NCBI GenBank assembly: GCA_025062275.1
Contig: JANXAP010000003.1
Span: 10,950 to 74,949, forward strand
From: Dehalococcoidia bacterium
GTDB taxonomy: Bacteria > Chloroflexota > Dehalococcoidia > SM23-28-2 > HRBIN24
Length of the DNA stretch: 64,000 nt
Reading direction: 5' to 3'
The notes under the pieces are model-generated. The model saw only the letters and a program-made list of their open reading frames with translations. It made no database searches and had not been told where the DNA came from. The position numbers were made by a program, and so were the translations under genes. Shown here in pieces: positions 911-59,950 of this stretch. Position 1 is the first letter of the stretch; each line of letters begins with the position of its first letter.

Positions 911-1939
911 ATGAGCGAGCCGATGCGCCTGACGCAGATGGCGTCCTGCGCCGGTTGAGCCGGCAAGCTGGGGCCGGAAGCCCTGGCGCAGGTCCTGCGC
1001 CATCTCAGCGACCATGACCTGACGGGAGGCCGGCCCGACCTGCTGGTGGGCCTGGCCACCCCCGACGACGCCGCCGTCCTGCGCCTGAGCGACGAGCTGG
1101 CGGCGGTGTTGACGGTGGACTTCTTCCCGCCGGTGGTGGACGACCCTTATGACTTCGGGGCCATCGCCGCTGCCAACGCCATGAGCGACGTCTATGCTAT
1201 GGGCGGCGAGGTGGCCCTGGCCCTCAACGTGGCCGCCTTTCCCGAGGACCTGCCCCATGAGGTGGTGGCCCGCATCCTCCAGGGCGGCGCCGACAAGGTG
1301 CGGGAGGCGGGCGGCGTCATAGCCGGCGGGCACTCGGTCATCGACCGGGAGCCCAAGTACGGCCTCTGCGTTCTGGGCCTCGTCCATCCCCAGCAGGTGC
1401 TGACCAAGGGCGGCGCCCAGCCAGGCGATGTGCTGCTGCTGAGCAAGCCGATAGGCACCGGCATCGTCACCACCGCCGGCAAGCAAGGGACAGTGGAGCC
1501 TGGGCACCTGCAAACGGCGGTGGAGTGGATGAAGGCCCTGAACCGACACAGCCTGCACCAGGCCCGGGAGCTGGGCGCCCACGCGGCCACTGACATCACT
1601 GGCTACGGCCTCCTGGGCCATGCCTGGGAAATGGCCCAGGCCAGCGGCCTCCGCCTGCGCATCCGCGCCGGGGCCGTCCCCCTGTTGCCCGGAGTCCTGG
1701 AATATGCCGCCAGGGGGGTCTACTCGGGCGGCGGCCATCGCAATCTGCGCTACTTCGGCCCCCGCGTCCAGATAGACGAATCGCTTCCCGAACCCCTGCG
1801 CTTGGCCCTGTTCGACCCCCAGACCTCGGGCGGCCTGCTGCTGGCCGTGCCCCCACAGGCGGCGGCCCGCCTGGCCGACAGCGGCCTCTGGGCGATAGGC
1901 GAGGTCCTGGAAGGCAACGGGGTGGAGGTGACGCCCTAA
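911..1939 (+). CDS. selD: Selenide, water dikinase (selenophosphate synthetase), selenoprotein form with in-frame TGA (Sec) at 956-958
   Basis: ORF track gives only 1046..1939. Reading back in the same frame from ATG 911 gives MSEPMRLTQMASCAG-U-AGKLGPEALAQV, which aligns to E. coli SelD [26 protein letters not shown] with TGA at the catalytic Cys17 position. The rest of the protein is SelD-like along its length (DFFPPVVDDPYDFGAIAAANAMSDVYAMGG ... DITGYGLLGH ... DPQTSGGLL). GGGAG Shine-Dalgarno lies upstream of 911. Confidence 0.85.
985..1001 (+). promoter_or_regulatory. Candidate SECIS hairpin for selD: GGCGCA-GGUCC-UGCGCC (6-7 bp GC stem, GGU in apical loop) about 30 nt 3' of the UGA
   Basis: Seen directly. 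The loop GGUC resembles the E. coli fdhF SECIS apical loop GGUC. Spacing is longer than in E. coli (G of the loop at +36 versus +23). Confidence 0.45.
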
Positions 1940-3969: not shown

Positions 3970-4491
3970 CTAACGCGAGCGGCGGCGAAAGCGGACAGGC
4001 ATGTGCTTGATGCCGTTGATAAAGTTGGAGCGCATGCGCTCCACCGGCCCCACCACCTCCACGTCGTAGGGGCGCGACAGCAGCTCCTCGAACAGCACCC
4101 GCGCCTCCAGCCGCGCCAGAGAGGCACCCAGACAGAAGTGGGGGCCGCCCGCCCCGAACGCCACATGGTCGTTGGGCTGACGGGTGACGATGAAGGCGTC
4201 AGGGTCGGGAAAGACGTCCTCGTCCCGGTTGGCCGAGATGTACCACATGGTCACCCGATCGCCCGCCTTCATGGGCACGCCGCGGAACTCGGTGTCGCGG
4301 GTCACCGTCCGACGCATGTACATGACGGGCGAGACGTAGCGGAGCATCTCCTCCACCGCCGTGGGCATGAGGGAGAGGTCGCTGCGCAGTAGCTCCATCT
4401 GCTCCGGGTGCTCCGTCAGGGCCAGGAGGCCGCCCGAGATGAGGTTGCGGGTGGTCTCGTTGCCCGCCACCGCCAGCAGCACGAACTGGGC
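3970..4491. repeat. Dispersed repeat copy A: P450 3' half, about 94% nucleotide identity to 58593..59114, with a core of about 215 bp that is near-identical
   Basis: Direct comparison of the two stretches. The spurious small ORFs 3900..4166 and 58541..58789 in the track are near-identical reflections of the same repeat. Confidence 0.85.
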
Positions 4492-5238
4492 ATGACGCTC
4501 CAGGGTGGAGAGCTTCTCGCCGTCCACCTCGGCATGCAGGTAGGTGGTAACCAGGTCTTCCTTCGGTTCCCGCAGCCGCTCCTCCTCCAGGCTGTTGAGG
4601 TAGGCGGCCATCTCCATGGCGGCGCCGGCGATGACCCGCCGGAACTGCTCGATGAGGGCCTGGACCTCCTCCTCCGTCTCGGGAGGCTTCTCGATGACGA
4701 TGCCTCCGTACTCGGGGTCGCCGGCCCCGAGGATCTTGTTGCTCCACTCGAATATCTTGTGGCGGTCCTCATGGGGGACGCCCAGGAAGCGGGCGATGAC
4801 CCGCAGGGGCAGCTCGGCCGCCACCTCGGTCACGAAGTCGCACTCGCCCTTGGCGATGGCGTTGTCCAGGAGCTCGTTGACCATCTGGCGGACGTCAGGC
4901 TCCAGGCGGTTGACCATGCGGGGGGTGAAGCCCGTGCTTACCAGTCGCCGCAGCTTGGTGTGGCGGGGCGGGTCGGTGGTGATCATCATCAGGTTCTGGC
5001 TGGGGAAGAACTCCATGGTGGCCAGGGTGATGCCCTTGGCCGAGGAGAAGGTGGCCGTGTCCATGGAGGCCTTCACAAGGTCATCGTACTTGGTGAGCAC
5101 CCAGAACCCGCCCCCCTCCGGGTCGGGGTGCCAGAAGATGGGCGCCTCGCGCCGCAAGAGCTTGAACATGTGATGCGGCGGCCCCTGAACGAAGGTATCG
5201 CCGTCCAGCAGGTCCACATCCTGGAGCTTGAGGGTCAT
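3970..5238 (-). CDS. Cytochrome P450 (copy 1)
   Basis: Heme-binding loop FGAGGPHFCLGASLA, EXXR (EEMLR) and AGNETT I-helix motif. Start MTLKLQDV chosen over upstream in-frame Met at 5307 by alignment with copy 2. Confidence 0.9.
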   Translation of the reverse strand: MTLKLQDVDLLDGDTFVQGPPHHMFKLLRREAPIFWHPDPEGGGFWVLTKYDDLVKASMDTATFSSAKGITLATMEFFPSQNLMMITTDPPRHTKLRRLVSTGFTPRMVNRLEPDVRQMVNELLDNAIAKGECDFVTEVAAELPLRVIARFLGVPHEDRHKIFEWSNKILGAGDPEYGGIVIEKPPETEEEVQALIEQFRRVIAGAAMEMAAYLNSLEEERLREPKEDLVTTYLHAEVDGEKLSTLERHAQFVLLAVAGNETTRNLISGGLLALTEHPEQMELLRSDLSLMPTAVEEMLRYVSPVMYMRRTVTRDTEFRGVPMKAGDRVTMWYISANRDEDVFPDPDAFIVTRQPNDHVAFGAGGPHFCLGASLARLEARVLFEELLSRPYDVEVVGPVERMRSNFINGIKHMPVRFRRRSR

Positions 5239-5353
5239 GGGCCCACCCTCCTTTCGCTTGCCTCCCTTTTCTGGGCACACTCTAAAACTTAGCATTTGCT
5301 TTGTCAATGGCCCATAGCCGGGCCGTTAAGATGGACAGTGTGCAGGGGGAGAC

Positions 5354-13499: not shown

Positions 13500-14753
13500 A
13501 TGGGCGTGCTGGAGCGTGCCGACCCCGAGGTGGCAGCCATCATCCGCCGCGAAGAGGAGCGCCAGACCTACGGCCTGGAAATGATGGCCTCCGAGAACTA
13601 CGTCTCGGCGGCGGTGCTGGAGGCCATGGGGTCTGTCCTGACCAACAAGTACGCCGAGGGCTACCCCGGCAAGCGCTACTACGGCGGCTGCCAGTACATG
13701 GACGAGATCGAGTCCCTGGCCATCCGCCGGGCCAAGGAGCTGTTCGGGGCCGAGCACGTCAACGTCCAGCCCCACTCGGGGGCCGATGCCAACCTGGCCG
13801 CCTATCTGGCCATGATGGAGCTGGGCGATACCGCCCTGGCCATGCGCCTGGACCAGGGAGGCCACCTCACCCACGGCCACAGCGTCAGCGCCACCTCCCG
13901 ACTTTTCCGTTTCGTCCACTACGGGGTGGACCGGGAGACGGAGCTGCTGGACTATGACCAGATGCTGGCCCTGGCCCGAGAGCACCGTCCCAAGGTCATC
14001 GTGGTGGGGGCCACCGCCTACCCGCGCATCATCGACTTCGCGCGGGCGCGAGAGATAGCCGACGAGGTGGGGGCATATCTGATGGCCGACATCGCCCACA
14101 TCGCCGGCCTGGTGGCGGCCGGCGTCCACCCCTCGCCGGTGCCCTACGCCCACGTGGTCACCACCACCACCCACAAGACGCTGCGCGGCCCCCGTTCGGC
14201 CATGGTCATGTGCAAGGGGGAGCTGGCCGAGAAGATAGACCGCGCCGTTTTCCCCGGGCTGCAGGGGGGGCCTCACATGCACATCATCGCCGCCAAGGCC
14301 GTCTGCTTCGCCGAGGCCCAGCGCCCCGAGTTCGTCCATTATCAGCGGCGGACGGTGGAGAATGCCCGCGCCCTGGCCGAAGAGCTGATGTCCCTGGGCT
14401 GGCGCATCGTGTCCGGCGGCACCGATAACCACCTGGTGCTGGTGGACGTGGGCCAGCGGGGCATCAGCGGCAAGAAGGCGGAGCAGGTCCTGGACGCCGT
14501 GGGCATCTACTGCAACAAGAACACCATCCCCTACGACCCGCGGCCGCCGGCTGTCGGCTCGGGCATCCGCCTGGGCACCCCGGGGCTGACCAGCCGCGGC
14601 ATGGGCACCGACGAGATGCGACGCATCGCCCGCCTCATCGACGCCGCCCTGCAGGCTCGGGACGACGGTGCGGCCCTGGAGCGGGTGCGGGCCCAGGTGC
14701 GGGAGCTGGCGGCGGCCTTCCCCGTCCCCGGCATCAGCGACAGGGCACCTTGA
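13500..14753 (+). CDS. glyA: Serine hydroxymethyltransferase
   Basis: SHMT signature [12 protein letters not shown] (PLP-lysine) and overall conservation. Confidence 0.95.
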
Positions 14754-14796
14754 CTGGCTATGGCCCTGGGCTAAAATGAGTGATGGCTGACGGGGT

Positions 14797-14871
14797 GGGC
14801 GGTTAGCTCAGTGGGAGAGCGCTTGCTTCACACGCAAGAGGTCGCAGGTTCGAGTCCTGCACCGCCCACCA
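14797..14871 (+). tRNA. tRNA-Val (anticodon CAC)
   Basis: Cloverleaf GGGCGGT/ACCGCCC acceptor, anticodon loop UUCACAC, T-loop GGTTCGAGTCC, 3' CCA encoded. Confidence 0.8.
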
Positions 14872-14890
14872 CTGCCAGGCCAGAAGCGGT

Positions 14891-14978
14891 GCCCAGGTGG
14901 CGGAACTGGCAGACGCGCTGCGTTCAGGGCGCAGTGCCCCGCGCGGGCGTGCGGGTTCGAATCCCGCCCTGGGCACCA
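14891..14978 (+). tRNA. tRNA-Leu (anticodon CAG), class II with long variable arm
   Basis: Acceptor GCCCAGG/CCTGGGC, anticodon loop UUCAGGG, 15-nt variable arm, T-loop GGTTCGAATCC, CCA encoded. Confidence 0.8.
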
Positions 14979-15027
14979 ACGACCCGGGAAAGCTGACAGC
15001 TGCCGGCCTGGCGGCCCATACGGTAGC

Positions 15028-15105
15028 GCGCTCGTAGCTCAGCCCGGACAGAGCGCAGCCCTGCGGAGGCTGAGGTCGTGGGTTCGAATCCCACCGAGCG
15101 CGCCA
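15028..15105 (+). tRNA. tRNA-Arg (anticodon reads GCG)
   Basis: Acceptor GCGCTCG/CGAGCGC, anticodon stem CAGCC/GGCTG with loop CUGCGGA (G37), T-loop GGTTCGAATCC, CCA encoded. Confidence 0.65.
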
Positions 15106-15170
15106 TCTGTTCCCCCGGCCCCTTGCCCTCAGTGCCTTCGTCATGACATCATCGGCCCCGGAGGTGCCCC

Positions 15171-15533
15171 ATGGAGGCCATAGTCTATGAAATGCGGGGC
15201 TGAAGCACCTGCCAGCGAGCGAGAGAGTTCCTCTCGCAGAGAGGCGTGCAGGTGAAGGCCAGGGACTTCTTTCGAGAGCGGCTCACGGCCGAGGAGCTGC
15301 GGGAACTGCTGGGCGACCCCCCGCAGGCCGAGAAGGCCATCGCCTGGCGCAGTCCCAGGGCCAAGGCCCTCGGGCTGGACCCCGCCAATCCGCCGCCGCC
15401 CCAGGAGCTGCTGCGTCTCATCCTGGAAGTGCCCCACCTCTTGCGGCGTCCCGTCATACGCCTGGGGGAGCGGACCATATTCGGCTTCGACCGTCGAGCG
15501 CTGGAGGAGGCCCTGGCACAGGCTGGGAGATGA
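15171..15533 (+). CDS. ArsC/Spx-family thioredoxin-fold protein, selenoprotein with in-frame TGA (Sec) at 15201-15203 (UxxC redox motif)
   Basis: Not in the ORF track, which only has a GTG-start fragment 15246..15533. From ATG 15171 (Shine-Dalgarno GGAGGTG at 15160-15166) the frame reads MEAIVYEMRG-U-STCQRAREFLSQRGVQVKARDFF... This matches the ArsC/Spx/YffB N-terminal consensus I-x-I/V-Y-x(4)-C-S-T-C-R-K-A-x(3)-L-x(3)-G-I/V, with Sec in place of the first Cys. Without the N-terminus the fold would be incomplete. Confidence 0.75.
15205..15254 (+). promoter_or_regulatory. Candidate SECIS for the ArsC-like selenoprotein: inner hairpin GCGAGAG-AGUUC-CUCUCGC (15219-15237) nested in outer stem CACCUGC/GCAGGUG
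   Basis: Seen directly. The apical loop GU sits at +27/+28 from the UGA, close to the E. coli G23/U24 spacing. Confidence 0.45.
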
Positions 15534-16040: not shown

Positions 16041-16069
16041 TTGACAGAGGATTGGGGCGGGGCTAGACT
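16041..16069 (+). promoter_or_regulatory. Sigma-70-like promoter candidate TTGACA-N17-TAGACT upstream of the str operon
   Basis: Perfect -35 consensus at 16041-16046, 17-nt spacer, -10 TAGACT at 16064-16069, about 90 nt upstream of rpsL. Confidence 0.5.
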
Positions 16070-39509: not shown

Positions 39510-40700
39510 TCAGGCCCGCTGGGCAAGGCCCGCCGCCCGCCGCAGCTCCTCGGCCATGTCGGTGCGCTCCCAGGGCAGGTCCAGGTCGGTGCGGCCGAAG
39601 TGCCCGTAGGCAGCGATGGGACGGTAGATGGGACGCCGCAAGTCCAGCCGGCGGATGATGCCCCGTGGGCTCAGATCGAAGTGCTGCCTGACCAGCTCCA
39701 CCAGCCCGCCGTGGTCGAACTTGTGGGTGCCGAAGGTCTCCACCGAGATGGCGATGGGCTGAGGATGGCCGATGGCGTAGCACAGCTCCACCTCCACCCG
39801 GTCGGCCAGGCCCGCCGCCACCAGGTTCTTGGCCACCCAGCGGGCGGCGTAGGTGGCGGAGCGGTCCACCTTGGAGGGGTCCTTGCCCGAGAAGGACCCT
39901 CCCCCGTGGCGGGCGGCGGAGCCGTAGGTGTCCACCATCGTCTTCCGCCCCGAGAGGCCCGAGTCGGCAGCCGGGCCACCCAGCACGAAGCTGCCGCTGC
40001 GGTTGACGTGAATGTCCGTCTGGCTGTCCATCCAGTTGCCCAGCACGGGGCGGACGACGTGTTCTATGACGTCGGCGCGGATGCGTTCCTGCGTGATGGG
40101 GCCGCGGTCGTCGCGGTCATCGTGCTGGGCAGCGATGACCACCGCCGCTGCCCGCTTGGGCTCGCCGTAGGAGTACTCGATGGTGACCTGGGACTTACCG
40201 TCGGGCCGGAGGTAAGGGATGATGCCCCGCTTGCGGCACTCGGCCAGGCGCATGCACAGGCGGTGGGCCAGGACGATGGGCAGGGGCATCAGCACCTCCG
40301 TCTCGCGGCAGGCGAAGCCCACCATGATGCCCTGGTCACCGGCGCCCTCGTCCTCGCCCACGGCCTGGAAGATCTCCGGCGACTGGCGCTTGATGGCCAC
40401 GATGATGCCGCAGGAGTCGGCGTCGAAGCGGTACTCCGGGCTGGTGTATCCGATCTCGCGGATGACACGGCGGGCCACATCGTCGTAGTTGACGTAGTGC
40501 TTGGTGGTGATCTCGCCCAGGATGACGATGAGGCCGGTGGTGGCCGTCACCTCGCAGGCCACGTGGGCATCGGGGTCGTGGGCCAGGATCTCGTCCAGGA
40601 TGGCGTCGGCGATCTGATCGCAGACCTTATCGGGGTGCCCCTCCGTCACCGACTCGGCGGTCATCAGCACCGAGGGGGCGCTCATGAGGGTCAGTGCCAT
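39510..40700 (-). CDS. metK: S-adenosylmethionine synthetase
   Basis: MetK signatures [10 protein letters not shown] and GGGAFSGKD-like [16 protein letters not shown]. Confidence 0.95.
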
Positions 40701-40734
40701 GGCCCTACCTCCTGTATTTGGGGGTCTGCTCCCG

Positions 40735-42042
<1,308 letters not shown>

Positions 42043-42951
42043 TCATAATACGACCACCTCGGCCCCCAGGCTACGCCCCCGCCAGCGGGCGGCTGCCCGC
42101 CTCAGCAGGGAGAGAAGGCCGAGGGGTTCCCGCCGCAGGGCGGGCGTTTCATACAAGGTGCACTCTACCCTATATCCCAGCTTACGGTAAACCTGCACCG
42201 CCGCCGCGTTCTCCGTTTCCACCGTCAGATACACGTTAGAACAGGAACGCAGGAGTTCCTGGGTGACGGCCCCCGTCACCAGCGTGGCCAGTCCCCTCCC
42301 CCGCCAGTCGGGGTGAGTGTAGACGTTGCCCACCACCGCCACCCCCTCCTCCGGCGCGAAGACATGGGTGCCGGCAATGGCCACCAGGCGACCGGCAGCG
42401 ACGACCCCGTAATAGACGCCCTCTTCCAGGACCCGGGCCGGGTAGCTCGTGAAGCCCCCCTCAGCGCCGTAGAGGCGGTTGACGGCCCCTATCTCCCGAG
42501 GGCGCAGGCGCACCACCTGGTAGGTAGGACCCGCCGGGGGCGGCGGCCGGAAGCCATCGGCGGTGACCCCCATGCGGTACATCAGGCGCTCTCGAGAGAG
42601 GAGAAAATGGCGGCGCAGAGCGTCCAGGTGCTCGGGACGGCAGGTGGCAAAGGAGTAGCGGGGGCCAGGGTGCAGCCGCAGCCCCGCCTCCACCGCCTCC
42701 GCTTCCCCCAGGGTGAGGAGGGATGGGCCGGCGCCGCTGCGGGCGTAGAAGACGATCCCCCAGCCCCCGTCCTCGCCCTGGCAGAGGAAGAAGCGGCTGA
42801 GGGGGAAGAGACGCGGCGCCAGGTGGGCGATGGCGAAGGCGGCGTAGGGTCGCTGGGGCTCCAGGTAGGGACGCAAGGCAGAGGGGGTCGTGAGAGGTCG
42901 CACCAGGTAGGTGCGACGTGCCCTGCCCACGGGCAGCGCCGTCTCAGCCAC
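42043..42951 (-). CDS. GNAT-family acetyltransferase-domain protein
   Basis: C-terminal GNAT core HPDWRGRGLATLV...VYRKLGY. Confidence 0.6.
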   Translation of the reverse strand: MAETALPVGRARRTYLVRPLTTPSALRPYLEPQRPYAAFAIAHLAPRLFPLSRFFLCQGEDGGWGIVFYARSGAGPSLLTLGEAEAVEAGLRLHPGPRYSFATCRPEHLDALRRHFLLSRERLMYRMGVTADGFRPPPPAGPTYQVVRLRPREIGAVNRLYGAEGGFTSYPARVLEEGVYYGVVAAGRLVAIAGTHVFAPEEGVAVVGNVYTHPDWRGRGLATLVTGAVTQELLRSCSNVYLTVETENAAAVQVYRKLGYRVECTLYETPALRREPLGLLSLLRRAAARWRGRSLGAEVVVL

Positions 42952-43828
42952 CGCCGCCCCCCTCCAGGTATCTCCCGATTATAGGCCGCAGGCGCTCCTT
43001 CGTCTCTTCGGGGACCAGGTGGAAGGGGGTGATGAGGGCGTCGCGCAATGCCTCGGCGCAGGGGCAACGTCGCTCCCGCGGCAGCAGGCCCACCGCCCGC
43101 CTCACCACCGCCTGAGCGAGGCTCACGCCCTGGCGCAGGTTGGCGATGACCAGCTCCGCCGTCACGTCCGCCTCCCGCGGGTGCCACACGTCGTAGTCGG
43201 TGACCACGGCCAGGGTGGCGTAACACATCTCGGCCTCCCGTGCCAGCCGCGCCTCGGGCAGGGCCGTCATGCCGATGAGGTGAGCGCCCCATGAGCGGTA
43301 GAGCTGCGACTCGGCGCGGGTGGAGAAGGCGGGGCCCTCGATGACCACGTAGGTGCCGCCGTCGTGCACCGTTGCCCCTGCCTCCCGCGCCGCCGTCACC
43401 AGGGCACGCCGCAAGACCGGACAGAAGGGGTCGGCGAAGGCGATGTGGGCCACCAGCCCTCCGCCGAAGAAGGTGCCCGGCCGCCCCCGCGTGCGGTCTA
43501 TGAGCTGGTCCGGCACCGCCAGGTGCAGGGGGGCATAGTCCTCGTGCAGCGAGCCCACGGCGCTGACGCCGATGACCACCTCCACCCCCAGGAGCTTCAG
43601 GGCATAGATGTTGGCCCTGCTGGGCACCTCCGCCGGCAGCAACCGGTGGCCACGACCGTGCCGGGGCAGGAAGGCCACCCGTTCCCCGTCCAGGGTGCCG
43701 ATGACGATGTCGTCGGAAGGCGGGCCGAAGGGCGTCTCCAGCCGCACCTCCTCCAGCCCGCCGATGCCCTCCATCTCGTAGAAGCCGCTGCCGCCGATGA
43801 CGGCTACGCGGGCCTTCGCCTCAGCCAT
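42944..43828 (-). CDS. mtnP: S-methyl-5'-thioadenosine phosphorylase
   Basis: PNP/MTAP family (VAVIGGSGFYE ... RANIYALKLLGVE ... MTALPEARLAREAEMCYATLAVVTDYD). Start at MAEAKARV inside the longer track ORF. Confidence 0.88.
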   Translation of the reverse strand: MAEAKARVAVIGGSGFYEMEGIGGLEEVRLETPFGPPSDDIVIGTLDGERVAFLPRHGRGHRLLPAEVPSRANIYALKLLGVEVVIGVSAVGSLHEDYAPLHLAVPDQLIDRTRGRPGTFFGGGLVAHIAFADPFCPVLRRALVTAAREAGATVHDGGTYVVIEGPAFSTRAESQLYRSWGAHLIGMTALPEARLAREAEMCYATLAVVTDYDVWHPREADVTAELVIANLRQGVSLAQAVVRRAVGLLPRERRCPCAEALRDALITPFHLVPEETKERLRPIIGRYLEGGGGG

Positions 43829-48286: not shown

Positions 48287-48427
48287 CCTCTCGCCTCGGC
48301 AAGCCTATGCTATCCTCCCGCGGCGGGGACGTCCACCTGCTGCGATACTTGACTTACTCCATCGATAAAGTCCACAATTGGGACATGCCCCTCCGTGGAG
48401 GCCGACCGACCAGGAGGTGAACCGACC

Positions 48428-49813
48428 ATGGCGCTTTTCCGACCCGACCCCACCTTCTACCCTTCGCCGCGGCTGGCCATGCAGGCCCCGCCCGAGACCC
48501 TGGCCTATGTGGCCCTGCTGAATGTAGGCAACGGCCGCCCCGATGCCCTGGCCGTGGTGGACGTGGACCCCAGGTCGTCCAGCTATGGCCAGGTCGTCGA
48601 CCGGCTGGAGCTGCCCAACGTGGGCGACGAGCTGCACCACTTCGGCTGGAACGCCTGCTCCTCGGCCCTGTGCCCCCACATGCCCCATCCCCACCTGGAG
48701 CGGCGTTACCTGCTGGTGCCTGGCCTGCGCTCCTCCCGCATCTACGTGGTGGACACGCGGCCCGACCCCGCCAGGCCGCGCATCGTCAAGACCATCGAGC
48801 CCGAGGAGGTCAAGGGGCGGGCAGGCTACTCCCGCCTGCACACCGTCCACTGCGGCCTGGACGGCATCTACATCTCGGCCCTGGGCGGGGCCGACGGCGA
48901 CGGCCCCGGCGGCATCCTGGTGCTGGACCACGACACCTTCGAGGTGCTGGGCCGCTGGGAGATCGACCGTGGCGACCAGTTCCTGGCCTACGACTTCTGG
49001 TGGCACCTGGCCCACGACGTGGTGGTGACCAGCGAGTGGGCCACCCCCGATCTGTTCGAGAACGGCCTGCGGCTGGAAGACCTGGTGGGGCGCCGCTTCG
49101 GCCACCGCCTCCACTTCTGGGACGCGCGCCGACGCAAGAAGGTGGCCACCGTCGACTTCGGCGACGAGCACCAGATGGTGCTGGAACTGCGTCCTGCCCA
49201 CGACCCCACCAAGACCTACGGCTTCGTCAACGTGGTGGTGAACGTCAACGACCTGTCCAGCTCCATCTGGGTCTGGCACCGAGACAACGGCTCCTGGGCG
49301 GCGCGCAAGGTCATCGAGATCCCCGCCCAGCCGGCCGATAAGGACAAGCTGCCGCCGGCCCTCCAGGACGTGGGCGCGGTGCCGCCCCTGGTCACCGACA
49401 TCAACCTGTCCCTGGACGACCGCTTCCTCTACGTGTCCTGCTGGGGCACCGGCGAGCTGCGCCAGTACGACGTCAGCGACCCCTTCAGTCCCAAGCTGGT
49501 TTCCACCGTGAAGCTGGGCGGCATCGTCGACCCCGGCGCCCACCCTGCCGGCCACGTCCTGACGGGCGGCCCGCAGATGGTGGAGGTCTCCCGCGATGGC
49601 CGCCGCGTCTACGTCACCAACTCCCTCTACAGCTCCTGGGACGTCCAGTTCTATCCGCAGGGCCTCAGGGGCTGGCTGGTGAAGCTGGACGTGGGCGCCG
49701 AGGGGGGCATGGAGGTGGACAGGGACTTCTTCGTGGACTTCGGCGAGGCGCGGGCCCACCAGGTGCGGCTGCTGGGCGGCGACGCTTCGTCCGACTCCTT
49801 CTGCTATCCGTAG
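48428..49813 (+). CDS. Selenium-binding protein SBP56 family (methanethiol-oxidase-like), cytoplasmic form
   Basis: Aligns with human SELENBP1 along its length (ATVDVDP...DELHHFGWNACSS...SSRIYVVD...ITDINLSLDDRFLYVSCWGTGELRQYD...GGPQMVEVSRDGRRVYVTNSLYSSWDVQFYP...GGDASSD). No signal peptide. AGGAGGTGA Shine-Dalgarno before ATG 48428. Confidence 0.9.
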   Translation: MALFRPDPTFYPSPRLAMQAPPETLAYVALLNVGNGRPDALAVVDVDPRSSSYGQVVDRLELPNVGDELHHFGWNACSSALCPHMPHPHLERRYLLVPGLRSSRIYVVDTRPDPARPRIVKTIEPEEVKGRAGYSRLHTVHCGLDGIYISALGGADGDGPGGILVLDHDTFEVLGRWEIDRGDQFLAYDFWWHLAHDVVVTSEWATPDLFENGLRLEDLVGRRFGHRLHFWDARRRKKVATVDFGDEHQMVLELRPAHDPTKTYGFVNVVVNVNDLSSSIWVWHRDNGSWAARKVIEIPAQPADKDKLPPALQDVGAVPPLVTDINLSLDDRFLYVSCWGTGELRQYDVSDPFSPKLVSTVKLGGIVDPGAHPAGHVLTGGPQMVEVSRDGRRVYVTNSLYSSWDVQFYPQGLRGWLVKLDVGAEGGMEVDRDFFVDFGEARAHQVRLLGGDASSDSFCYP

Positions 49814-49819
49814 CGGGGC

Positions 49820-50479
49820 ATGGGCGTCTGGGAGCTTTCCGCCCTGGGCGGGCTGGCCCTGGCCGGGGTGCTGCACGGCATCAACCCGGCCATGGGCTGG
49901 CTCTTCGCCCTGTTCTTCGGCCTGCACCGCGGCGGCCAGCGGGCCCTGTGGCTGGCCCTGGCCGCCGTGGGGCTGGGGCACCTTTTAGCGCTGGCCCTCT
50001 CGCTGGTGCTGCTGCTGGCTGCCAGCTCCACCGTGCCCATCGGCCCCCTGCGCATCGCCGCCGGCGCCGGTGCCCTCGTCCTGGGCCTGGGGAGGCTGCT
50101 CTCCTGGTGGCGGCACCCGGGCTGGCGGGGCCTCAACCTGGGATACGGCGAGCTGGTGCTCTGGGCGGCAGTCATGGGCCTCCTGCACGGTGGCGGGCTG
50201 GCCTTCGCGCCTCTGGTGCTGGGGGAGGGGAGGGGCAGCCTGCTCGACTTCGGGCACTGGGTGCTGCCCACGGCCGTGCACGGGGCGGCGGCGATGGCCA
50301 CCATGGCCGCCTGCGCCGTGGCCGTGCAGCGCTGGCTGGGGCTGATGGCCCTGCGCCGCTACTGGTTCAACTTCGACCTGGCCTGGGGAGTGGCCCTCAT
50401 CGTCATCGGGCTGGCGGTGCTGCTGATGCCCTGGCTATTGCCGGTGGAAGAGGCAGCCCACCACGCGCCGGGGGTCTGA
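49820..50479 (+). CDS. Polytopic membrane protein with repeated His-Gly motifs (possible metal transporter, HupE/UreJ-like?)
   Basis: 219 aa, about 6 TM, motifs VLHGINP, GLLHGGGLAFAP, FGHWVLP, VHGAAAMA. Starts 7 nt after the SBP56 stop, so probably co-transcribed. Confidence 0.5.
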   Translation: MGVWELSALGGLALAGVLHGINPAMGWLFALFFGLHRGGQRALWLALAAVGLGHLLALALSLVLLLAASSTVPIGPLRIAAGAGALVLGLGRLLSWWRHPGWRGLNLGYGELVLWAAVMGLLHGGGLAFAPLVLGEGRGSLLDFGHWVLPTAVHGAAAMATMAACAVAVQRWLGLMALRRYWFNFDLAWGVALIVIGLAVLLMPWLLPVEEAAHHAPGV

Positions 50480-58592: not shown

Positions 58593-59114
58593 CTAGCGGG
58601 AGCGGCGGCGGAAGCGGACGGGCATGTGCTTGATGCCGCTGACGAAATTGGAGCGGAGCCACTCCACCGGCCCCACCACCTCCACGTCGTAGGGGCGCGA
58701 CAGCAGCTCCTCGAACAGCACCCGCGCCTCCAGCCGCGCCAGAGAGGCACCCAGGCAGAAGTGGGGGCCGCCCGCCCCGAACGCCACATGGTCGTTGGGC
58801 TGACGGGTGACGATGAAGGCGTCAGGGTCGGGAAAGACGTCCTCGTCCCGGTTGGCCGAGACGTACCACATGGTCACCCGGTCGCCAGCCTTCATGGGCA
58901 CGCCGCGCACTTCCGTGTCTCGGGTGACGATGCGCGCCATGTACATGACGGGCGAGACGTAGCGGAGCATCTCCTCCACTGCCGTGGGCACCAGCGAGAG
59001 GTCGCTGCGCAGCAGCTCCATCTGCTCCGGGTGCTCCGTCAGGGCCAAGAGGCCGCCCGAGATGAGGTTGCGGGTGGTCTCGTTGCCCGCCACCGTCAGC
59101 AGCACGAACTGGGC
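58593..59114. repeat. Dispersed repeat copy B (P450 3' half)
   Basis: See copy A. Confidence 0.85.
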
Positions 59115-59852
59115 GAACCGCTCCAGATCGCTCAGCCTCTCGCCGTCCACCTCGGCGTTCAGGTACACCGTCACCAGGTCTTCCTTCGGCTCGCGCATTC
59201 GCTCCTCTTCCAGCCGCCGAAGGTAAGAGGCCATCGCGGCGATGGTGTTCTCGGAGCGACGGACGAACTGCTGCGGCGCCGGAGCCGCCTCGGCCTCGGT
59301 CGTTCCGGCACGGCTGTACTCGGGGTCCATGGCGCCGATCAGGGCGTTGCTCCATTCAAAGATGAGGTGTCGGTCCTCTTTGGGAACGCCGATGAAGCGG
59401 GCGATGACCAGGAGGGGTAGCTGGGACGATACCTCGGTGACGAAGTCGCACTCACCCTTGGCGATGGCGCTGTCCAACAACTCGTTCACGATCTCGCGGA
59501 TGTCGGGCTCGAGGAGGCTTATCATGCGCGGCGTGAACCCGGGGCTCACGAGACGCCGCAGTTTGGTGTGCCGGGGCGGGTCCGTGGTCACCATCATGGG
59601 GAACTGGTTGGGGCTCACGATGGATTCCAGGGTGATACCCCTGGACGAGGAGAAGGTAGACGTGTTCATGGAGACCTTCACCAGGTCCTCGTACTTGGTG
59701 AGAACCCAGAAGCCTCCCGCGACGGGGTCGGGATGCCAGTAGACGGGAGCCTGCTGGCGCAGGACCTTGAAAAGGTGATGGGGCGGCCCCGAAAGGAAGA
59801 CGTCCAGGTCCAGGAGGTTGACGTCCTTCAGCTCGGTCGTCATCGGTCTCAC
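58593..59852 (-). CDS. Cytochrome P450 (copy 2, paralog of 3970..5238)
   Basis: Same heme loop FGAGGPHFCLGASLA. C-terminal 150 aa is about 97% identical to copy 1, N-terminal half about 70%. Start at M1 or at MTTELKDV (59843). Confidence 0.9.
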   Translation of the reverse strand: MRPMTTELKDVNLLDLDVFLSGPPHHLFKVLRQQAPVYWHPDPVAGGFWVLTKYEDLVKVSMNTSTFSSSRGITLESIVSPNQFPMMVTTDPPRHTKLRRLVSPGFTPRMISLLEPDIREIVNELLDSAIAKGECDFVTEVSSQLPLLVIARFIGVPKEDRHLIFEWSNALIGAMDPEYSRAGTTEAEAAPAPQQFVRRSENTIAAMASYLRRLEEERMREPKEDLVTVYLNAEVDGERLSDLERFAQFVLLTVAGNETTRNLISGGLLALTEHPEQMELLRSDLSLVPTAVEEMLRYVSPVMYMARIVTRDTEVRGVPMKAGDRVTMWYVSANRDEDVFPDPDAFIVTRQPNDHVAFGAGGPHFCLGASLARLEARVLFEELLSRPYDVEVVGPVEWLRSNFVSGIKHMPVRFRRRSR

Positions 59853-59950
59853 CTCCGCCCGTGCTGCAGCCCCCGAGGGGTCGGGAGCGACTGCTCCTCC
59901 TTCAGGATGGAGGTCGAACGCTTACCAGGATTATACAACATGACCACACC

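Follow-up and report, generated by a model that had tools for sequence, protein, structure and literature searches.

The window analysed here, i.e. the whole stretch of 64,000 nucleotides (69 % G+C), contains on its plus strand a short gene whose reading frame is interrupted by an in-frame TGA and which is flanked by a tRNA cluster and a GNAT acetyltransferase gene (Table 1). Ten sense codons (MEAIVYEMRG), read from the ATG at 15171, precede the TGA at 15201-15203; beyond it the same frame translates as STCQRAREFLSQRGVQVKARDFF... and ends at a second TGA (15531-15533). An initial annotation of this DNA had proposed this ribosome-binding site, start codon and N-terminal frame, all of which are present, and had pointed out that the mechanically generated list of open reading frames leaves 15171-15245 uncovered. 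That list indeed holds a single plus-strand ORF in this region, which begins at GTG 15246 and encodes 95 aa.

Table 1. Positions of the principal features of the window considered in the text.
Feature	Position	Strand	Basis or remark
selD (selenophosphate synthetase)	911..1939	+	In-frame TGA scan; TIGR00476
Promoter-like TTGACT-16-TAAAAT	14750..14777	+	Consensus scan; ahead of tRNA-Val
tRNA-Val(CAC), tRNA-Leu(CAG), tRNA-Arg(GCG) cluster	14797..15105	+	ARAGORN, Rfam; directly upstream
Shine-Dalgarno GGAGGTG	15160..15166	+	Read from sequence; 4 nt 5' of ATG
Predicted ArsC/Spx-family selenoprotein CDS	15171..15533	+	120 residues including Sec11, plus TGA stop
In-frame UGA, predicted selenocysteine U11 of U-S-T-C14	15201..15203	+	Column conservation; Cys in full-length homologues
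Bacterial SECIS-type hairpin	15219..15237	+	7-bp stem, loop AGUUC; fold and covariation
GNAT acetyltransferase, 122 aa	15530..15898	+	Pfam Acetyltransf_1, E = 1.3e-16
Promoter-like TTGACA-17-TAGACT	16041..16069	+	Consensus scan; ahead of rpsL

Searches with the 120-aa product, in which U was read as C, recovered the Pfam ArsC family (PF03960) above its threshold (36.6 bits against a gathering cut-off of 24, E = 5.6e-9), with residues 6-112 aligned to profile positions 1-77 of 79, and agree in this respect with the family assignment of the initial annotation; there is also a weak match to the Pfam Glutaredoxin family. Among proteins of solved structure the best relatives are Spx proteins (PDB chains, E = 1.8e-10, residues 5-111). 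In the alignment with Spx, U11 and C14 fall on C10 and C13, occupying the position of the N-terminal CxxC redox switch, and the RS and LLRRP motifs are common to both. Homology to the solved Spx structures fixes the predicted fold of the product. None of the curated NCBIfam subfamily models reaches its cut-off with the 120-aa product: the best match is Spx/MgsR (TIGR01617, 55.6 bits against 75.05), and the nitrogenase-associated (TIGR01616, 50.1 against 109), Spx (NF002459, 44.8 against 123), ArsC family (seleno)protein (NF041106, 39 against 85) and arsC (TIGR00014, 30.3 against 106.05) models likewise score below threshold. We therefore place the product, a thioredoxin-fold protein, within the ArsC superfamily, in a subfamily not yet curated. 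NF041106, which aligns over residues 6-109, is a curated ArsC-family model that tolerates Sec and is the one Sec-aware ArsC model of NCBIfam; the window protein falls outside the subfamily that it delimits, which is probably why the NCBI annotation misses the Sec codon. The Dehalococcoidia-wide clade to which the protein belongs is covered by no curated subfamily model.

The ten closest database proteins considered (52-99 % identity) are without exception calls of 90-98 aa that start after the TGA. Reading their contigs upstream revealed in each of the ten a conserved strand, followed by an in-frame TGA at the same column and then by (S/T)-T-C. A scan of species-representative genomes yielded 35 further loci, mostly from Dehalococcoidia/SAR202 assemblies, together with one from Syntrophaceae and one from Ignavibacteria. 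The column is occupied by TGA in 34 of these 35 and by TGC in one (L044), a ratio which, coming from a scan seeded by peptide patterns from an 8-sequence alignment, is no unbiased census; the bias of the scan runs against Sec because the sole pattern touching the column required Cys codons. When the scan loci are combined with the window and with L005, L006 and L008-L011, the column reads TGA in 41 of 42 loci and TGC in the remaining one, at identities to the window protein that range from 86 % down to about 33 %. Sec predominates in this clade, which is found largely in Dehalococcoidia/SAR202. The homologues keep the N-terminal strand together with TGA-(S/T/G)xC, none of them starts at the GTG, and the second Cys of the motif, C14, is invariant. 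In every homologue, in-frame conservation with synonymous differences covers the 10 codons ahead of the TGA and the 14 beyond it: A3, Y6, R9 and G10 are kept by varying codons (GCC/GCT/GCG/GCA, TAT/TAC, CGG/CGC and GGC/GGG, respectively), and upstream of the TGA it is the third codon positions that vary most (2.6 distinct bases per column, as against 1.9 and 1.7 at the other two). Such synonymous variation upstream of the TGA is the hallmark of a segment under translation.

Cys-containing counterparts were sought in an exhaustive search of the representatives, with the 109 residues following the Sec codon as query. Among the best 150 representatives, 41 are full-length proteins with Cxx[CST] at the column, 39 of these having CxxC (CSTC in, for instance, P0012 and P0021), and 82 are short calls (<=111 aa) lacking the motif, which is what mis-called Sec forms or fragments would give. 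These data bear directly on the reading in which the real gene is the 95-aa (or 93-aa) ORF starting at GTG 15246 or at 15252, the 10 upstream codons being a leader or non-coding and the TGA an ordinary stop. The mechanical list and all public gene calls give the short form alone, and start-like codons do exist 3' of the TGA, but the short protein would be devoid of strand beta-1 and of the active-site motif that both Pfam ArsC and Spx align. Moreover, the downstream start positions are unconserved, the Cys homologues read straight across the Sec column, and the in-frame conservation extends in every homologue to the codons that this reading would leave untranslated. We consider it extremely improbable. 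A second alternative holds that a Cys codon (TGC or TGT) became TGA here, by a nonsense mutation or through an assembly error, and that the gene is a pseudogene or artefact. It could appeal to the single base that separates TGA from TGC and TGT and to the relative with TGC, but it is almost certainly wrong: TGA is found in 41 independent loci from different assemblies and lineages, its recurrence across dozens of separate assemblies speaks against a read error, purifying selection acts on both flanks, and the downstream hairpin described below accompanies the TGA and shows covariation. A reassignment of UGA throughout the genome is also contradicted, because the selenoprotein gene and its homologues use UGA as their own stop. 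The selenoprotein gene is real but mis-annotated.

Shortly after the in-frame TGA the transcript can form a hairpin with the stem GCGAGAG (15219-15225) and CUCUCGC (15231-15237) and the loop AGUUC (15226-15230). The spacer between the UGA and the stem measures 15 nt, the stem beginning 16 nt past the UGA, and the apical loop presents G and U at +27/+28 (U of UGA = +1), of which G +27 is nearly invariant; the geometry is that given in the initial annotation in every particular. Taken as a single sequence (71 nt) it folds only modestly better than shuffled sequence (z = -2.17), so that the case against a chance hairpin rests on the comparison of homologues. In an ungapped alignment of 39 distinct sequences 94.6 % of the cells are paired; every locus with TGA has the hairpin, at +19 to +37, and the one with TGC has none. 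Compensatory changes on both sides are found in 5 of 8 pairs (C-G to U-A and G-C to A-U), as when Arg AGA is replaced by Lys AAA/AAG together with a synonymous change of Leu CTC to CTT. Neither the pairing nor the covariation was equalled in any of 500 shuffles, and sliding the register made the result worse in every case. The stem carries AGA, a rare codon that makes up only 1.5 % of those used for Arg in 12 genes of the window identified with confidence. Since the hairpin falls in the stretch that encodes the conserved peptide A(R/K)EFLS, its sequence is in part conserved on account of the protein. Rfam returned no family at the hairpin with either gathering or E-value thresholds. An outer helix (15206-15212 with 15248-15254) in the minimum-free-energy fold is unconserved across homologues and was rejected as part of the element.

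The sole relative with TGC at the Sec column, L044 (4001-4321), retains the protein motif as CGTC but has wholly lost the hairpin that follows in the others. Within SAR202 it provides a natural comparison between Sec and Cys, whichever way the replacement went.

Given the above, we hold it very likely, as judged from sequence comparison, that the product of the locus is an ArsC/Spx-superfamily protein of 120 residues with a thioredoxin fold, and that the UGA at its codon 11 is recoded to selenocysteine. The Pfam ArsC match, the Spx alignment, the conservation of the TGA and the covariation of the hairpin all support what the initial annotation had put forward, namely an unannotated ArsC/Spx-type selenoprotein with a UxxC motif, and none of the checks that it had named as possible refutations went against it. 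Translation would start at ATG 15171 behind a strong ribosome-binding site, and the hairpin at 15219-15237, lying within the coding sequence and displaying G-U in its apical loop, is predicted to be a bacterial SECIS element. It would recruit SelB with Sec-tRNA(Sec), leading to the insertion of Sec at codon 11 instead of termination.

Scanning the window for in-frame TGAs with coding signal on both sides turned up another gene of this type, selD. Its in-frame Sec codon (956-958) falls at the catalytic Cys column (SCAG-U-AGKL) and is followed by a hairpin at 985-1001 (GGCGCAG-GUC-CUGCGCC); with U read as C, the product reaches 371 bits with NCBIfam TIGR00476 (cut-off 125), the alignment beginning at residue 6. 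A selD with its own Sec codon implies that the genome makes selenophosphate, and it is a second gene that needs UGA-Sec decoding. A stop-to-stop ORF call on this selD would drop its first 15 residues and the active site. No tRNA-Sec was found in the 64-kb window or in 46 fetched loci, and the 20 larger ORFs of the window, which encode 221-502 aa, include neither selA nor selB; SelA, SelB and tRNA-Sec are presumably encoded elsewhere in the genome. Some Dehalococcoidia genomes carry 46-49 selenoprotein genes (PMC13326102). The window also encodes, at 48353-49813 on the plus strand, a member of the 56-kDa selenium-binding protein family (SBP56, PF05694, 654 bits), after which the same frame continues as a 221-aa ORF (49814-50479) that matches no Pfam family and whose third codon positions are very rich in G+C.

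The UGA at codon 121 would act as a true stop, and its overlap with the start of the GNAT gene as ATGA (15530-15533), which recurs in L001, L006, L007 and L011, is predicted to couple the translation of the two genes in the closest clade. The initial annotation had reported this coupling as well as the position of the gene directly after a Val-Leu-Arg tRNA cluster. Both the overlap and the cluster are there, and the same tRNA cluster precedes the selenoprotein gene in L001, but their weight was overstated: GNAT coupling is limited to the closest clade (window, L001, L006/L007 and L011), as is the tRNA neighbourhood, and other clades have LysR or mutS/mutL as neighbours. A scan for sigma-70-like consensus sites found 2 sites where 0.1 were expected (Table 1) and none between tRNA-Arg and the selenoprotein gene; given this lack of a promoter immediately ahead of the gene, co-transcription with the tRNAs is possible. 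The site ahead of tRNA-Val suggests itself as a candidate promoter for a putative tRNA-selenoprotein-GNAT transcription unit. A terminator scan from the GNAT gene to rpsL recovered no intrinsic terminator.

In the window the gene is surrounded by glyA, the tRNAs, the GNAT gene and rpsL, with ribosomal and rpoA operons also near, and in L001 it lies beside rpoB/rpoC; the neighbours recorded in relatives comprise rpoB/C, tuf, Fur/ZnuA, LysR and mutS/mutL. In a second clade, consisting of L002, L008, L009 and probably L010, the gene follows one for a LysR-type regulator, and L013 joins this clade by ORF layout only. More distant Sec homologues (L005, L015, L016, L019, L023 and L026) are situated between mutS and mutL or just 5' of mutL, and in a SAR202-like clade (L027-L043) the TGA stop of the selenoprotein gene overlaps the start of mutL as TGATG. 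No ars transporter or repressor genes (arsR, arsB, acr3) adjoin the gene in the window or in the related loci examined. The common theme across the family is placement in housekeeping loci, not in detoxification operons. We know of no functional link between ArsC/Spx-like proteins and MutS/MutL, and this association, so far unexplained, is what we find most intriguing in the wider family. Between the selenoprotein gene and mutL there is often a 145-aa ORF without a Pfam match.

The U11-S-T-C14 motif is predicted to lie at the start of the first helix, in the position of the C10-x-x-C13 redox switch of Spx. The position of U11 is also, we assume, that of the catalytic Cys12 of glutaredoxin-coupled ArsC. 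Cycling between the selenol/thiol form and a U11-C14 selenenylsulfide seems most probable, CxxC members presumably doing the same with a disulfide. Our best guess is that the protein would function as a general selenol-thiol oxidoreductase or redox sensor and not as an arsenate reductase. Arsenate reduction appears unlikely because the arsC score is low, there are no ars genes nearby and the second Cys is invariant. In particular, it is very improbable that the protein is a glutaredoxin-coupled arsenate reductase with Sec in place of the catalytic Cys12. Membership of Pfam ArsC and the alignment of U11 with the first motif Cys of the family would be compatible with such an enzyme, and the coupled GNAT weakly matches ArsN-type models. 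However, the TIGR00014 score misses its cut-off, the adjacent genes in the window and in the related loci examined include no transporter or repressor of the ars type, and the invariant C14, which recalls the CxxC proteins of the Spx type, is more in keeping with a dithiol-type mechanism than with one based on a single Cys. The window protein shares with ArsC (TIGR00014) and with YffB (PDB 1rw1) the Pfam family, the fold and the nucleophile at the N-terminus of helix 1, and it differs from them in its weak scores (E = 2e-6 for YffB), its genomic context and its invariant second Cys. An arsenic link by way of the GNAT was considered and discarded, as this protein scores only 22.5 and 21.4 bits with the ArsN2 and ArsN1 models, against cut-offs of 125 and 170.

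The solved structures closest to the window protein are those of Spx from Bacillus subtilis and relatives (PDB 1z3e, 3gfk, 6ghb and 7f75; E about 1e-10), with which it has in common the redox-switch CxxC position and the RS(K/P) and LLRRP motifs. Unlike them it has Sec for the first Cys, spans 120 aa as against 131-132 and ends before the C-terminal tail, comes from a host of the phylum Chloroflexota and scores under the Spx family cut-offs. It might by analogy be an Spx-like redox-sensing regulator that binds the C-terminal domain of the RNA polymerase alpha subunit, with a U-x-x-C selenenylsulfide as the switch. That Spx proteins are the best solved relatives, that Spx/MgsR is the best NCBIfam match and that UxxC aligns with the CxxC of Spx are in favour of this, as is the proximity to rpoB/rpoC in L001 and to the ribosomal and rpoA operons in the window. 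We nonetheless regard it as rather unlikely, in view of the sub-threshold score with every Spx model, the absence beyond residue 120 of anything that would correspond to the C-terminal tail of Spx, the gapped or variable region aligned to Spx Gly52, and a neighbourhood that varies between clades. To our knowledge, Spx regulators have been characterised in Firmicutes only, which also counts against it. A broader form of the idea, in which the clade would serve not as a generic reductase but as a dedicated redox sensor or regulator based on selenium, whether Spx-like or directed at the DNA-repair or translation machinery, is hinted at by the fixed housekeeping placement beside rpoBC, rpsL and tuf in the clade of the window and between mutS and mutL in other clades, the SAR202-like group showing translational coupling to mutL. 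Although it is a long shot, and decidedly unlikely on present sequence comparisons, it would, if true, make this the first selenoprotein whose role is regulatory or tied to repair. Our preferred interpretation remains that of a general selenol-thiol oxidoreductase or redox sensor.

Proteins of this kind have been catalogued before. 'ArsC-like' selenoproteins appear in the 2006 survey of bacterial selenoproteomes by Zhang et al. (PMC1794560), and the 2008 GOS selenoproteome distinguishes 'Arsenate reductase 1' (pfam03960), with UxxS, from 'Arsenate reductase 2', with UxxC and assigned to an Spx-like model (cd03032), the latter with 42 Sec and 238 Cys sequences (PMC2398784). A 2022 review lists a UxxC 'Arsenate reductase-like protein' under COG1393 (PMC9312934), and the worked example of BSepDB (2026) takes a Cys-containing 'arsenate reductase-like protein' as query and retrieves Sec homologues from the database (PMC13326102). 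The statement in the initial annotation that Sec-containing ArsC-like proteins are rare was accordingly overstated: these four sources document an established family, and Sec dominates in the present clade. With the catalogued UxxC proteins the window protein shares the ArsC/Spx fold, Sec as the first residue of an N-terminal UxxC, Cys homologues at the Sec column and a SECIS hairpin just downstream. The likeness to the GOS 'Arsenate reductase 2' (cd03032), a UxxC in an ArsC/Spx-type domain, is one of motif and fold; comparison with the catalogued clusters is by description, and membership in a listed cluster is presumed. Unlike the catalogued proteins, the clade of the window is largely Dehalococcoidia/SAR202 and is truncated in public annotation. 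The window gene belongs to a kind of selenoprotein already described in bacterial surveys and constitutes no new category.

In the public records the selenoprotein and its relatives are represented by fragments of 90-98 aa without the active site, and selD is likewise split by its Sec codon. The public call for the window gene, NCBI locus tag NZ695_00250 in a Dehalococcoidia MAG, has 93 aa. Correcting both annotations alters the selenium biology inferred for this Dehalococcoidia lineage. The hairpin provides a clean example of a covarying bacterial SECIS from a genome of 69 % G+C. Concrete handles for a first functional study are offered by the dominance of Sec, the lack of ars context and the GNAT or mutL coupling. 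Elsewhere in the window we noted, all on the minus strand, two cytochrome P450 genes (3970-5325 and 58593-59921), an adjacent pair comprising metK and the S-adenosylhomocysteine hydrolase gene (39510-42042), and a gene for a second, larger GNAT-domain protein (42043-42978).
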